Assembly: GCA_963826115.1 (NCBI GenBank)
Contig: CAWGVS010000005.1
Coordinates: 2,016,001 to 2,080,000, forward strand
Direction: 5' to 3'
DNA from: an uncultured Candidatus Rokubacteria bacterium
Lineage (GTDB): Bacteria > Methylomirabilota > Methylomirabilia > Rokubacteriales > DASRDR01
DNA length: 64,000 nucleotides
Part shown: positions 18,112 to 62,894 of the stretch, in pieces
Layout: each line of letters opens with the position of its first letter
Numbering within the stretch: position 1 is the first letter of the stretch
Position numbers and translations under genes: made by a program
Notes under the pieces: model-generated
The model's database searches: none
Told to the model about the DNA's origin: nothing
Seen by the model: the letters and a program-made list of their open reading frames with translations, nothing else

Positions 18112-18702
18112 CTACGCCCGCCCCTGGTCGGGGCAGTCGCGGCGGTCCGGGTCCGGTCGCGAGTGCCGCCAGAGACCCTGCGACGGCACCCGAAGCGCCC
18201 GGTTGAACTTGCTGGACGCGTTCTCCCACGCGATCACCGCCGTCAGCTCCACGAGGGCGTCGTCGTCGTAGAAGCGGCGAAGCCGGTCGAAGAGCTCGTC
18301 GCCGACCTCGCGATCGCTGAACGTCATCGCGTCGGCGTACTCGAGCGCCGCGCGCTCCGCGCCGTCGTAGAATAGGCTCGTCGCGTAGCCCGGCAGCGCC
18401 AGGATCTTCTCCTCCGGCACCCCGAGCGCGCTGCCCACGGCAGCATTGATGTCCTGTCAGAACCCGCAGCCGTTCAGAAACGCCACGCGCCGGTTGGCGA
18501 GGGCCTTGAGCCTCTCGTCGATCAACCCGGAGGCGCCGATGCCCGCCCACATCCCGCGTGCGCCCCGAAAGATCGAGGGCCGGCGCGCGTACACGAGGTG
18601 ATTCAGGAGAGGAGCGCCCCAGTGCTTTGCCTGCGCGGCCAGCACCTTCTCGGCGTAGTCGTCTCCCGCCTCGCCTGGCCGGACACCCTCGACGCGGGCC
18701 AC
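18112..18702 (-). CDS. CMD/AhpD-like protein, predicted selenoprotein (C-G-F-U; UGA at 18457-18459)
   Basis: GTG start 20 nt after the msrP stop. ...RRVAFLNGCGF-TGA-QDINAAVG... continues in frame into the CMD C-terminal half (ERAALEYADAMT...LVELTAVIAWENASSKFNRAL). The UGA occupies the second Cys of CxxC. 197 codons. Confidence 0.85.
18430..18459 (-). promoter_or_regulatory. Putative bacterial SECIS element
   Basis: UGA-CAGGACAUCAAU-GCUGCC(GUG)GGCAGC: 6-bp stem from +13, loop begins with G. Confidence 0.7.
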
Positions 18703-55752: not shown

Positions 55753-56088
55753 CTACCAGCGTGGGGGCCGGCCCGAGCCTCCGCGGCCACCGCCGCCCAT
55801 GCCCGACCCGCCGCGGCCACCGCCACCGCCACCGCCCGCCCCCTGCGGGTTGGCGAGCTCGACCTTGATCGTGCGACCGTCGAGTCGCTGGCCGTTGAGC
55901 ATGCTGACGGCCTTCTGGGCTTCCTCGTTGGTCGCCATCTCGACGAAGCCGAACCCTCGCGACTGCCCAGAGTATCGGTCGGTGATGACCGTCGCCGACT
56001 CCACCGTCCCGCACTGGACGAAATGCTCGCGCAGGGCCTCGGAGGTAGTCGAGTACGAGAGACCGCCCACATACAGCTTGACCGCCAT
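55753..56088 (-). CDS. RRM RNA-binding protein with Gly-rich tail (second paralog)
   Basis: KLYVGGL, RGFGFVEM; AAGGAGG RBS; extended -10 TGCTATGCT at 56131-56139. Confidence 0.93.
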   Translation of the reverse strand: MAVKLYVGGLSYSTTSEALREHFVQCGTVESATVITDRYSGQSRGFGFVEMATNEEAQKAVSMLNGQRLDGRTIKVELANPQGAGGGGGGGRGGSGMGGGGRGGSGRPPRW

Positions 56089-56467: not shown

Positions 56468-57841
56468 CTAGCCGAACGGGAGGAGCAGCTTCGTCAGGGT
56501 CGCGCGAACCTCGTCGGGCGTCGTGACCCCGACGGCCCGCACGATCCCCTTCTTGTCGACCACGACGTTGTGCGGCACGCCGCGGAGGCCGAGCCGGGCG
56601 ATGTACTCCCCGGTCGCATCGATGAGCACGGTGCCCTGGATGTTGTGGATCTTGCAAAAATGGAGGGCCTCACGCCGTGGATCAACGTGCTCCCACACGT
56701 TGACCATGACGATTTCGAGCCCGAACTTCGCGGCCCGACGACGCACTTCCTCGAGTAGCGGAGCCTCCGCGTTGCAGGGTCCTCACCAGCTGGCGAAGAA
56801 GTTCAGGATGTACTTCTTGCCTCGATACTCCTCCGACGTGCGCGGTTTCCCGTCCGCCATGTCCGGCAAGCTGAACGACGGGAGGGGCTTTCCGATCAGA
56901 GGATGCTGCCAGTCCTTCGGGAGCTCGGCCGGCTCACCGTCCAGCCGATCCTGGAAGATGCTCACCGTGCTGGTGGCCGCGTCCGAGACGTACACGGTTC
57001 CCGACTGCTGGTCGACAGCGAGGTCCCCGGGAGCCTTGCCGACCGGAACCCGCGCCCACTCCCGGCCCGTCTGACGGTCGATCACGCTCACCCGCCCCGT
57101 CCCCCGGTTGGCCGCGTAGATGCGATCACCCGCGCGCCCCAGACCCATGCCTACGGGGGCGCGCTCCACGGTGAGGGTGTCCACGACCTCCTGCTTGTCC
57201 AGGTCCACCACCGCCACCGTGCTGACCAGCGAGTTCGCGACGTAGGCGCGCCCCCGCGGCGCGTCGATGGCGATCTTGCAGGGCGCGTAGTCGAGCTTGA
57301 TCTCCCCGATGGGCTCGTTCGACTGACCGTCGATGACGGTCATCGACGCGTCCCCGAAGTTGACGCAGTAGACGCGGTCCCGCACCGGGTCGGAGCCGAG
57401 GCTGCCCGCCGCGGTCTTGGCCGGCACGGTCGCGATGACCTCCAGCCGGTCGGCGTCGATGACGCTCACGGTGTTGTCCGCCGTGTTCCCGACATAGACC
57501 TTGCGACGCTCCGGATAGAAGCCCGCTCCGGCGGGGTAGTGCTGGACGGGGATCTGCGTGATGGTCTTGAGGGTCGCCGTGTCGATGACGGACACGACGT
57601 CCGAGCGCGCGTCGGTCGTGAACACGTGGCCACCCTGCTTGTCGTGCACGAGCCCGATCGGCTCGCGGCCCACCGGCACCTGGGCCACGACCTCGCGCGA
57701 ATCGAGGTCGAACACGGCGACGCTGTCGCTCCGCGCGCACGCCACGTACCCTCGCCGACCCTCGCCATCGACGGCGATGCCCTCGGGCCCGTAGCCAACT
57801 GGAATCGCGCCTGGCGCGGGGAAGCTCTCCGACGTGCCCAT
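56468..57841 (-). CDS. YVTN/YncE beta-propeller fused to a TlpA/redoxin domain, predicted selenoprotein (W-U-G-P-C; UGA at 56783-56785)
   Basis: About seven YV.N..S.TVSVID blades, then LIGKPLPSFSLPD...LNFFASW-TGA-GPCNAEAP...VNVWE...RGVPHNVVVDKKG (thioredoxin fold with cis-Pro). 458 codons. Confidence 0.87.
56758..56785 (-). promoter_or_regulatory. Putative bacterial SECIS element
   Basis: UGA-GGACCCUGCAAC-GCGGA(GGC)UCCGC: stem from +13, loop begins with G. Confidence 0.68.
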
Positions 57842-57982
57842 GTGCTCTCCTCGAGACCAAACTCGCTCGTGCTAGGTGAGGGCCGGCGTTCCCGGCTCTG
57901 AGCCCGGCACACTATGCCCGATCACCCTTGGCGTCGCAAGTGATTCATGCCTCGTCGAGGGCTCGGCGCAAGGGGGCCGCCG

Positions 57983-59027
57983 TCACCCCTGCCCCTGCCC
58001 GCCCGCAGGATCCGCGAGCGAAAGCCGACGTCGACGGGCCAGCCCCCGGAGGCGCGCCGTCGCCTCGACCAGTCCGCCGGGAAGGAGGAGCACGATCCCG
58101 ATGAACAGCACCCCGAAGATGAGCAGGTGCAAGTCGACCCAGCGCAGCGCCAGATACTCCCGCAGGAAGACGAAGAGGGCCGCGCCGAGGACCGGCCCGT
58201 GCACCGTGCCCACGCCCCCGATGAAGGTGATCAGCACGGCATCGAAGGTCCACGTCGGGCTGAACGCGTGCTGCGGGTAATAGCTGATGTGATAGAAGGC
58301 GAACAGCCCTCCGGCGAGCCCGGCGAGACCCGTGGACACGGCCACGGCGGCGAGCTTGACGCGGAAGGCCCCCACACCGGACGCCTCGGCGGCCGTCTCG
58401 TCCTCCCGGATGGCCTCCATGGCGAGCCCGAGCCGCGAGGCGGCCAGCCACGTCACGGCCAGCGTTGTCCCGACCGCGAGCGCGGCCGCGGCGTAGTAGC
58501 GGTCCGTGAGCCGATAGGCCGCGATGGCCTTCGCCGGACAGCGTGGAGATCTCGGGGAGCAGGTTGCCGACCGCGATCCGGAGCACCTCGGCGAGCGCCA
58601 GGGTCCCGATCGCGAAGTAAGCGCCGCGCAGCCGGAACGCGGCGAGCCCGACGGCCACGCCCGCCACGGTCGCGAGCGCGGCCCCCGCCGCCATCGCGAC
58701 GGGAACCGCCACGCCACCCGCCCACAGATGGCGCGTCGCCAGAGCGCCGAGCCCGAAGAAGGCTGCGTGGCCGAGGTTCACCTGGCCCGCCTGCCCGCCC
58801 ATCACGTTCCAGCTCTGAGCCAAGGCCACCAGCAGAAAGAACACGACCCCCAGGTTGAGCCAGTCCTCCCGGGTGACGGCGAGAGGCGCGAGCCCGAGGA
58901 GAGCCAGGGCCACCGCCGTCCCCGCGGCGCGGCCGACCCCGACGCGACGCGCGCCCGCGCTCCACCGGGCCATTCGGGCCCGGCGTGAGAAATCGATCGG
59001 ACCGCCGGCGGCCTTGGCGGGGGTCAC
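57983..59027 (-). pseudogene. Branched-chain amino acid ABC permease (LivM-type), frameshifted near 58539
   Basis: SWNVMGGQAGQVNLGHAAFFG...EISTL, then a +1 shift to PAKAIAAY...AIREDETAAEASG...FIGGVGT. Length 1045 nt = 3n+1. Could be a sequencing indel. Confidence 0.8.
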
Positions 59028-59897
59028 GCGCGCCCGAACAGGCCCTGTGGACGCGCCACCAGGACGCAGAAGAAGAGGAGCAGGCCCACCACCTCGCGGT
59101 ACGCGCCTCCGAACACCACCGCGCTCAACGCCTCGGCACACCCGAGCACGATCCCGCCCACGAAGGTGCCGAATGCGGACCCGAGTCCGGCCAGCACGAT
59201 CACGATCAGCGCCTTGAGGGTCCACTCGAGCCCGATGGACGGGCTGATCGAATAACCCAGGCTCACGAGCGTCCCGGCCGCCCCGGCGAGGGCGGTGCCG
59301 ATGGCAAACGCGAGCCCGTAGGCGCGGCGCACATCGATCCCGACCAGGCTCGCCGCTTCCCAGTCCTCGGCCGTCGCGCGGATCGCCTGGCCCCACCGAG
59401 CCCGGCGAAGGAAGGCGTGCAGGAGAGTGAGTCAGCCCGAGGGCGACGAGGAGACTCAGGAGGCGTCCCAGCGGAACCACGACGCCCCCGACCGCGAGGG
59501 TGCGGCCTCGGTAGGCCGTCGTGATCGAGCGCTCGTCCGCGGTGAACAGCCGGACGGCCAGCGCCTGGAGGGTGAGGGCGAGCCCGAAGCCGACGAGGAG
59601 CGAGTTCTTGATCCGCGTCTCCTCGCCGTGGCGCACGATGAAGCGGAACACGCCGCCGTAGAGGAGAGCGCCCAGCGCCCCCGCCATCGGGATGACGAGC
59701 AGCAGCGCCACGAATGGATCGAGCCCGAGGAGCGCGACCAGCCAGAAGGCGCCGTACCCGCCCAGCATGATCAGCTCGCCGTGGGCCACGTTGAGGACCC
59801 GCAGGACGCCGAACACGAGCGAGAGCCCTGCGGCCGCCAGGCCGTAGAGCCCTCCGAGCAGGATGCCCAGGATCAGTTGCTGCGCGAGCGCCGTCAC
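59024..59897 (-). pseudogene. Branched-chain amino acid ABC permease (LivH-type), frameshifted near 59432
   Basis: GLSLVFGVLRVLNVAHG...LVALGL, then a +1 shift to LTLLHAFLRRARWGQAIRATAED...VLAGLGS. Length 874 nt = 3n+1. Confidence 0.8.
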
Positions 59898-61415: not shown

Positions 61416-62618
61416 TCACCGCTTGGAATAGGCCGGTGCCGGGTAGGCCAGCGGCTTGGTGGCGAACTCCTTCGGCCAGACCATCTCCTGCTGGCCGTCG
61501 AGCCACTGAAGGAAGGCTCCCTGCACGACGCCCGTGCCGTCGGCGCGGAACTTCACCGGTCCGACCACGGTCATCATGTCCGTGGCGGCGATGGCGTCGC
61601 GCACCTTCTCACGGTCCAGGGCACCGGCCTTCGTGAGCGCCGCCGTCAGGATCTGCACGCACGCGTACGCCGGGCCGGTGATCGGGTCGGAAGGCCGCCC
61701 GATCTTCTTCACGTGCGCGGCGTTCAGCTCGGTCACGCCCGGATACTTGAACGCGTGATGCCAGCCCGGGGCGAACACGACGTAGTCACCGTCCTTGCCG
61801 AGGTTCTTCGACCAGACGGGCGCGTCGGGCGCGCGGATCATGAGCGCCAGCTTGGGATTGAAGTCGAGCTCGTGCATCTGCTTGACGATCGCCATGCCGT
61901 CGGGCGGGGTCGGGAGGGCGAACACCGCGTCGGCCTGAGCCGTCTTGGCCTTCAGGATCAGGTCAGAGTAGTCCTTCGCGCCTGGGGCATACTCACCCTG
62001 GACGACCACTTCGTACCCGGCGGCCTTCCCCGTCTCCACCCACGCCGCGGCCATCTCCCGGCCCCAGTCGGTCTTCTCGAGGAAGAGCGCGACCTTCTTG
62101 GGACGCTCGGCGGCCGGAATCGAGGTCAGCATCGGCACCATCTGCTGGCCGATGTCCGGCGACTTCCAGAACGGGGAGAAGAGGTATCGGAACCCCTGCT
62201 GGTGGATCTTGTGGAGGGCGAAGGCCACGCCAAGATACGGGATCTTGTTCTTCTCGGCCGCAGACGCCGCCGCCGCGTGGAGATCCGAGCCGAACGTGCC
62301 CAGGTACGCCACGACACCCTGCGTGGCCAGGCTCTCGTAGCGGGCCACGGTCTTCGTCGCGTCGGACTCGTCGTCCAGGAGCACGAGCTCGAGCGGCATC
62401 TTCGCCCCGCCCACCGTCACGCCCCCGGCCCGGTTCACGTCCTCGATTGCGAGCTCGTAGCCGACCCGCACCTGTGAGCCCGGAGCCGCGTACCGCCCCG
62501 TCAGCGGCACGACCGCTCCGACCTTGATCGTCTGGGCGGAAACCGCCCCCGGCCAGGCGAGCCAGCCGGTCGCCAACACCGTCACGAGCCCGCTCAGGAT
62601 CCATCCTCGTCGCGTCAT
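61416..62618 (-). CDS. Branched-chain amino acid-type ABC substrate-binding protein
   Basis: Signal peptide ending VSA-Q; IKVGAVVPLTG; LDDESD; DREKVRDAI. Confidence 0.92.
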   Translation of the reverse strand: MTRRGWILSGLVTVLATGWLAWPGAVSAQTIKVGAVVPLTGRYAAPGSQVRVGYELAIEDVNRAGGVTVGGAKMPLELVLLDDESDATKTVARYESLATQGVVAYLGTFGSDLHAAAASAAEKNKIPYLGVAFALHKIHQQGFRYLFSPFWKSPDIGQQMVPMLTSIPAAERPKKVALFLEKTDWGREMAAAWVETGKAAGYEVVVQGEYAPGAKDYSDLILKAKTAQADAVFALPTPPDGMAIVKQMHELDFNPKLALMIRAPDAPVWSKNLGKDGDYVVFAPGWHHAFKYPGVTELNAAHVKKIGRPSDPITGPAYACVQILTAALTKAGALDREKVRDAIAATDMMTVVGPVKFRADGTGVVQGAFLQWLDGQQEMVWPKEFATKPLAYPAPAYSKR

Positions 62619-62894
62619 TGCGCCCCTCTCTTTCGGTGAGAGCTCCGGGCCAGACGGCGCCGCGCCGAGCGCCCGTGCGTCGGGCGCACCGACCCGGCGC
62701 TCGGCGCCGGCTCGTCGTGCCGTGCCTCGTAGAAGGTGACGTTCAAGAAGCTCGGAGGCGTCGGGGCAACAAGAAGCCGGGCGACCCCGGGCCGACGTCC
62801 ACCGGTGTGTCTCGCGCCCATCTCCCCGATCAGGGCCGCCCACCGATCGCGCCGGCGCCCGGACCGCTTGACAGATTCCATCGAATGGTGTGTG

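Follow-up and report, generated by a model that had tools for sequence, protein, structure and literature searches.

The window, by which we mean the whole 64,000-nucleotide stretch of DNA that was analysed, carries on its minus strand a gene of 457 codons and a TAG stop (56468..57841) that is interrupted by an in-frame TGA. The frame opens with an ATG at 57841, 5 nt downstream of GAGGAG, a putative ribosome-binding sequence (57847..57852, minus strand), and runs for 352 codons (57841-56786) to the residues LNFFASW; after the TGA (56783-56785, minus strand), which we read as selenocysteine 353 (Sec353) because the codon is conserved across homologous loci, it continues in frame for 104 codons to the TAG at 56468-56470. 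The first-pass annotation had held that reading through the TGA gives a W-U-G-P-C redoxin and that a separately called 92-aa ORF is the tail of the same product, and the sequence and the profile scores bear out both statements. The domain scan that it had recommended places two kinds of domain above their cut-offs in the read-through product, namely the YVTN repeat (TIGR02276, 160.4 bits against 27.85) and Redoxin (PF08534, 71.1 bits against 26.6, residues ~316-443), with AhpC-TSA (PF00578) scoring 68 bits within residues 316-443, while none of the whole-protein NCBIfam equivalogs reaches its cut-off with the 457-aa product. An AlphaFold2 model of this product from a 41-sequence alignment (pLDDT 94.3, pTM 0.92) contains 28 strands that form seven four-stranded blades, closed by residues 11-14, followed by a 19-residue linker (residues 298-316; 56894..56950, minus strand) and a thioredoxin fold; the pTM suggests that the two modelled domains are held in a fixed arrangement.

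Public records split this gene in two: database proteins end at FASW, as in the Streptomyces RefSeq entry WP_381569886.1, a 369-aa “YVTN family beta-propeller repeat protein” that finishes at the Sec codon, and the tails are recorded as hypothetical proteins of 79-97 aa. Annotation in this form truncates what appears to be a selenoprotein family shared across phyla. Scans for promoters, terminators and Rfam families at the gene found nothing. A gene 379 bases downstream (55753-56088, minus strand) encodes an RRM protein with a glycine-rich tail, is conserved at this place in the host genus and is probably a separate transcription unit.

Homologous loci were fetched by a pattern scan that left the codon itself free, and all 156 that reach it (43-96% identity) have TGA followed by G-P. 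These comprise 78 of 78 loci from genome collections (the best 78 of 432 confirmed stretches) and 78 of 78 from metagenomes (among the best 80 of 439 confirmed stretches, which were fetched), the two further metagenome loci ending before the codon and one locus (L152) being frameshifted just after it; some loci are near-copies of each other and all are kin, so the counts are not independent. Closer to the source genome, which together with its family contributes 17 loci, 16 have the TGA with a 104-codon tail, and in the seventeenth (L036) the TGA is present and the contig ends after 94 codons. A search of 40 relatives recovered the gene in 15, including 13 of 14 in the genus, always with one TGA at the same place; three of the 13 genus copies are split by frameshifts upstream of it. 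The downstream frame is kept, and homologues that end at the TGA with no continuing frame, which the first-pass annotation would have taken as a counter-argument, were not seen among these loci.

A sequencing error at the TGA had to be excluded because permease genes nearby carry frameshifts in this assembly. We reject it, since the codon is conserved in family, genome-collection and metagenome loci and independent assemblies carry the same TGA, which speaks to the earlier doubt whether the codon is real. At 57989-59822 and 62618-62791 (minus strand), both upstream branched-chain-type ABC permease genes are frameshifted relative to the homologous locus L131, probably through assembly errors, and the regulator gene matches that locus over no more than its final 58 codons. 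A second copy of the fusion gene on contig C11 (89% identical) was considered as a paralogue and rejected: over 69% of its length this 239-kb contig follows the C5 region collinearly at ~80% identity, the contamination of the assembly stands at 5.34%, and C11 is probably a co-binned relative. In a comparison with sequencing runs all shares were below 0.2 and the contigs belong to relatives; a single contig from an RNA library runs across the codon, with two other letters, and shows neither expression nor habitat.

Cysteine counterparts of Sec353 are found at the level of the redoxin domain. The UGA aligns with the catalytic Cys of ResA and with the Cys of stand-alone redoxins such as P0381 (NFFASWCGPCNAE, 41% identity), so the TGA/Cys pairing that the first-pass annotation had proposed to look for exists for the domain only. 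No Cys form of the whole fusion appeared in a full-length search (best 120 listed among 7,999 candidates scored), nor in redoxin-region searches of proteins of 251-800 aa (6 matches, 492 candidates) and 30-250 aa (112 matches, 178 candidates), which together cover proteins up to 800 aa and leave room for rarer Cys forms beyond the best loci. Because no such form was found, the family makes a case for asking what needs selenium. Among the matches listed in the protein searches this propeller likewise never occurred by itself, nor this redoxin with a different partner; a profile search was swamped by long repeat proteins.

The source genome (G000) encodes SelA, SelB and tRNA-Sec together on contig C8, as well as SelD, and the Sec genes (on C8 and at C5:561687) do not lie beside the fusion gene. 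A genome without Sec machinery, a further objection that had been anticipated, was therefore not what we found: selA, selB, selC and selD are all present, and SelD itself contains a TGA (Sec form). All 15 gene-carrying relatives among the 40 searched have selA. Among 49 carrier genomes, reached by submitting 50 of the 78 loci, 44 have selA, the isolates without exception (12 of 12), and the five carriers with no selA match are all MAG-titled. In an even sample of 301 Streptomyces genomes selA occurs in 60 and the fusion in four, all selA-positive, of which one is the seed and two were already known; 400 other Actinomycetota genomes, with four candidates scored per genome, yielded no full fusion. 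Named carriers belong to the Rokubacteria/Methylomirabilota (nearest, 96% identical), the Armatimonadota, one Acidobacteria bin and many Actinomycetota. The 12 isolate carriers are Actinomycetota, and the gene is present in cultured Streptomyces, Actinoallomurus and Microtetraspora, which means that its function can be tested.

A candidate SECIS hairpin spans 13-25 nt after the UGA (56758..56770, minus strand; 5-bp stem, GGC loop, -7.0 kcal/mol). The published SECIS model (PMC13188914) places the loop 16-37 nt after the UGA and has a G in the loop, a stem of at least 4 bp and an energy of -7.5 kcal/mol or lower; the candidate fits its spacing (loop from 17 nt), loop and stem, misses its energy cut-off and shows no covariation. 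It lies on the most synonymously constrained five-column window of the gene among 19 closer sequences (codons 358-362; excess 0.43 against a gene mean of 0.038, sd 0.125), where the rare codon GCT, with 9% usage, is kept in 17 of the 19. The hairpin is the weakest when set beside 22 hand-picked Sec candidates of the genome that have one (-7.4 to -15.3 kcal/mol) and selD (-15.5); by itself it does not exceed chance in this 72% GC genome, where the same test gives an energy of -6 or better for 37% of TGA triplets taken at random, and the region after the UGA folds no better than shuffles or synonymous recoding (z +0.45). In the 74 more distant sequences a long hairpin can be drawn from +12 to +49, with 84.5% of positions paired against 27-55% in slid controls, an MFE z of -1.78 relative to synonymous recoding and one pair that varies between G-C, C-G and U-G, figures that flatter the structure in that it was derived from the same 74 sequences on which it was scored. 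R372, whose codon lies outside the proposed long hairpin, is encoded by CGG in all of the 72 distant sequences compared.

The case for selenocysteine rests on conservation and machinery, with the hairpin in a supporting role, and we regard the TGA at 56783-56785 as almost certainly decoded in this way. Several features of a bacterial SelB-dependent selenoprotein are found here together: an in-frame UGA with the frame kept beyond it, alignment to Cys at domain level, and the genes selA, selB, selC and selD. SelB and tRNA-Sec, guided by the hairpin just after the UGA, would insert Sec at position 353, a step for which the sequence support is strong. That the TGA is instead a genuine stop, or is decoded as Trp or Cys, leaving two separate genes, is barely credible. 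Gene callers do end the proteins at FASW and list the tails separately, and one 173-aa fragment known as a protein only (P0285) has W at the Sec position; against this, a stop would halve a CxxC motif, the frame is kept in all loci but one, the residues on both sides of the TGA are invariant, the codon is never swapped for TAA or TAG in the 156 loci that reach it, TGA is used as an ordinary stop in the same genomes (it ends this very gene in L038 and L041), and the carriers have selA. It is also very improbable that the UGA is inefficient by design, with selenium supply setting how much 352-aa propeller-only form is made relative to the full selenoenzyme. The weakness of the hairpin speaks for two products, as does a modelled propeller that is complete ahead of the UGA and could fold by itself, whereas the short form would end in 36 residues of a redoxin start that cannot fold, the long hairpin of the distant clade is strong, and the searches gave no propeller standing by itself.

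The C-terminal domain (residues 317-457; 56471..56893, minus strand) is a TlpA/ResA-type redoxin, as judged from PF08534/PF00578, the match to ResA (4nmu, E 1.8e-19) and its invariant residues. It has the attributes of that group, with PF08534 over its cut-off, W-U-x-x-C at a helix start and a Pro loop ahead of the final hairpin: the W-U-G-P-C-N motif and a G-V-P-x-N loop are both present, W352-C356 sits in the model at the start of helix 354-373, and G421-V-P423 is invariant or nearly so. The second residue of the UxxC, C356 (56774..56776, minus strand), is Cys in 93 of 93 sequences, and the invariant surface of the domain further comprises N357, E364, E384, G421, P423 and N425, with W383 in 92 of 93. 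ResA, TlpA and DsbE (CcmG) are the nearest solved relatives among the matches listed, and the ResA motif N-F-x-A-S-W-C-x-x-C aligns exactly with that of the fusion. These are membrane-anchored, exported Cys enzymes, whereas the fusion has no signal or anchor: a hydrophobic N-terminal stretch occurs in 0 of 113 family members examined, which supports the location in the cytoplasm that the first-pass annotation had predicted from the lack of a signal peptide. The fusion misses the equivalog cut-offs of ResA, TlpA and DsbE (60.4/170, 42.5/230 and 61.3/123 bits), as well as that of a ResA-like WAxxUGC selenoprotein (NF041054; 47.6 against 300 bits), and its motif is U-G-P-C, not U-G-C.

The YVTN propeller is usually seen as a surface or scaffold module. 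Here it occupies residues 11-297 (56951..57811, minus strand), as defined by TIGR02276, DSSP of the model and the fold match to 1l0q (Z 39.0, rmsd 1.7, 276 aligned), the best obtained. The seven YVTN blades of the first-pass annotation stand, and TIGR02276 over its cut-off and the modelled seven-bladed fold are what is expected of a YVTN repeat protein; the extent of ~315 aa given earlier does not, as the model gives about 290 residues. Its “several Cys” come to exactly three in the propeller, C396 sitting in the redoxin. C35 (57737..57739, minus strand) lies in a C-x-R-S loop of blade 1 and is Cys in 91 of 93 sequences, with R37 in 92; C159 (57365..57367, minus strand), in the Y-C-x-N-F of strand B of blade 4, is likewise Cys in 91, with F162 in all 93; and C188 (57278..57280, minus strand), at the start of strand A of blade 5, is Cys in 93 of 93 and is the candidate catalytic residue. 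Across 93 non-redundant full-length sequences the propeller residues E20, E60, G146, F162, C188, V230 and R246 are invariant; C35, C159 and Y102 (91/93 each), R37 and N161 are nearly so, and R79 is present in 69. In a signature screen of 883 propeller stretches, everything with at least seven of 12 signature residues proved to be a family member or a fragment of one, and unrelated propellers match at most five. From the order of strands in the model, all signature residues except C159 appear to map to the top face, at the starts of inner strands (D-A loops) or in B-C loops. The earlier proposal that the propeller selects substrates or partners can be refined accordingly: judged by conservation, its invariant Cys and polar positions resemble an active or ligand site more than a surface that passively selects partners, and they offer concrete residues for mutation. 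Mutual-information contacts were noise at an effective depth of 31. Many actinobacterial loci, such as L081-L111, encode an N-terminal extension that is acidic and contains an extra Cys motif (55 of 146 by pattern), and many have a C-terminal extension with a W-H-W-Q-like sequence.

A 2026 review tabulates 119 selenoprotein families (PMC13188914), and the available part of its Table 1 includes UxxC entries of redoxin or TlpA type: “Redoxin family protein” (PF08534, UxxC), “Thiol-disulfide isomerase-like” (cd02966, UxxC) and “Prx-like thiol:disulfide oxidoreductase” (PF00578). So far as that source shows, the catalogued UxxC redoxins share with the fusion the fold, Sec as the first residue of the CxxC motif and a coding-region hairpin after the UGA, here a candidate one; the fusion differs in carrying a YVTN propeller of 290 aa, which has an invariant Cys site of its own, and the searches gave no Cys version of the entire protein. 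The propeller fusion is absent from the 119 entries as available to us, in agreement with the earlier suggestion that it may be undescribed, and databases may contain members filed under a redoxin label. A term search for “propeller” and “YVTN” gave no mentions in the accessible text of PMC13188914, 10.1101/2022.07.06.499078, PMC12013277 and PMC13326102, and searches of the literature on the fusion or on new bacterial selenoprotein families gave no description among the matches listed, with other selenoprotein data sets (BSepDB, deep-Sep) as places that could contain members. Propeller-redoxin selenoproteins are thus apparently a cross-phylum, uncatalogued family whose redoxin domain is itself of a known chemical kind.

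Two groups of known proteins invite comparison. YVTN and YncE propellers (the archaeal surface-layer protein 1L0Q, E. coli YncE, the beta subunit of hydrazine synthase) have the same repeat type and fold, yet lack the E20/C35/R37/E60/Y102/C159/F162/C188/R246 signature (at most five of 12 in the stretches screened) and have no redoxin fused to them. A PDB sequence search returned 1L0Q, YncE and ResA as separate matches, fold searches returned propellers only, mostly of scaffold type, among the matches listed, and the fusion falls short of the YncE equivalog NF052280 (101.2 bits against 400). The closer parallel is NHLRC2/SOQ1 with its bacterial Trx-NHL homologues, in which, according to the part of PMC6107167 available, a TlpA-like redoxin is also joined to a beta-propeller with conserved face residues. 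There the Trx domain comes first, the propeller has six NHL blades and the motif is CC(I/V)NC, whereas the fusion has the propeller first, seven YVTN blades and UGPC; NHLRC2/SOQ1 were not among the sequence or fold matches listed. By analogy NHLRC2/SOQ1 is a functional counterpart, and the fusion, given its different domain order, blade type and motif, is not a member.

In thioredoxin-fold chemistry the first motif residue attacks and the second, a Cys, resolves. Following that chemistry, Sec353 would be the attacking nucleophile and Cys356 would resolve the selenenylsulfide, with the UxxC re-reduced by a thioredoxin reductase or a low-molecular-weight thiol pool. The top-face pocket formed by E20, E60, Y102, F162, R37, R246, C188 and C35 would bind an oxidised substrate, probably polar or anionic; sulfoxides, persulfides, disulfides and oxyanions are the kinds envisaged. 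One of the propeller Cys, with C188 the likeliest, would join in the chemistry, and the UxxC would then restore it intramolecularly. In its combination of Cys, Glu, Tyr and Phe the pocket is reminiscent of the sites of methionine sulfoxide reductase A, and a precedent is offered by redoxin-Msr fusions, for example PilB. We liken this mechanism to SOQ1 and NHLRC2 because a redoxin is there fused as a dedicated reductant or forms a Trx-propeller cleft; the Trx domain of SOQ1 is described in 10.1101/2024.11.01.621559 as reducing paired cysteines that sit in a different domain of its own polypeptide. As the last propeller strand should exit at the bottom face, the 19-residue linker would have to wrap round for such a relay. 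That the protein is a two-domain cytoplasmic selenoenzyme with a redox relay from the UxxC to a Cys-based propeller site is a proposal to which we give even chances. More tentatively, and on balance doubtfully, the whole may be a Sec-only family with no Cys form of the entire protein, in which a YVTN propeller has been turned into a Cys-dependent reductase site recycled in cis by a Sec-redoxin, as an independent parallel to NHLRC2 and with two SECIS shapes for one codon. If true, a new thiol/selenol reaction would be common to Rokubacteria, Armatimonadota and Actinomycetota, and testable in cultured Streptomyces.

Other roles for the propeller have to be set against the relay. The top faces of seven-bladed propellers commonly bind peptides, and the fold matches of this one are mostly such scaffolds, so it is possible, if unlikely, that the propeller only selects a protein or peptide client which Sec353 attacks directly, its own Cys being structural or used in binding. 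The WCGPC-like motif and the invariant or near-invariant W383, E384, G421-P423 and N425 round the redoxin site would suit that role, but a docking surface would not usually call for three near-invariant Cys in company with Glu, Tyr and Arg, and no gene for a client accompanies the family from phylum to phylum. The NHLRC2 cleft is described as a ligand or partner site in the accessible part of PMC6107167, which would also fit docking. Rather improbable is a pocket whose Cys and Arg bind selenite, selenide, arsenic or a soft metal for reduction or transfer by the UxxC, possibly feeding SelD. The family offers three Cys and three Arg positions (R37, R79 in 69/93, R246) for this, and its gene adjoins selA-selB-selD in six loci, in two arrangements (divergent in four, co-oriented in two), with tRNA-Sec nearby in 13 of 60 loci scanned; the selenium donor of SelD is moreover unresolved according to the available part of the review (PMC13188914). 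However, the Sec-gene linkage is confined to one actinobacterial subtree, counts as few events and is absent in the source genome; only four of 60 selA-positive Streptomyces carry the fusion, which is hence no core Sec component; and no ars or mer cluster recurs among the neighbours. We prefer the relay from the UxxC to the propeller site.

These groupings come from a quick, midpoint-rooted tree, from which neither a donor nor a direction of transfer is deduced. In most loci the gene stands by itself; which genes surround it depends on the clade, and no neighbour conserved across phyla was found among the fetched loci, so that context names no pathway. Clade-local neighbours are phosphonate genes (seven loci), ABC transporters and AhpD/CMD-like genes. 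The seven loci L070, L076, L139, L140, L151, L153 and L182, all of one clade, have a PEP mutase gene downstream on the same strand, and most of them also have TPP-decarboxylase and class-V aminotransferase genes, an assemblage resembling phosphonate biosynthesis. In L081, L087, L090, L093, L110 and L111 the SelD adjacent to the gene is a Cys form (G-C-S-C-K), in contrast to the Sec form of the source genome.

The window holds a second Sec candidate at 18457-18459 (minus strand), where C-G-F is followed by TGA (CxxU) and 114 further codons; it has a 7-bp hairpin with a GUG loop 18 nt downstream (-10.4 kcal/mol) and looks AhpD/CMD-like by eye. A coding-potential scan of the source genome returned 430 TGA junctions, and 23 were picked by eye for redox motifs among the matches listed, including redoxins and AhpD-like, rhodanese-like, DsbA-like, FDH and MoeB-like genes. 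A hairpin 16-26 nt after the TGA is present in 22 of these 23, and the sequence survey suggests that this genome has a large selenoproteome.
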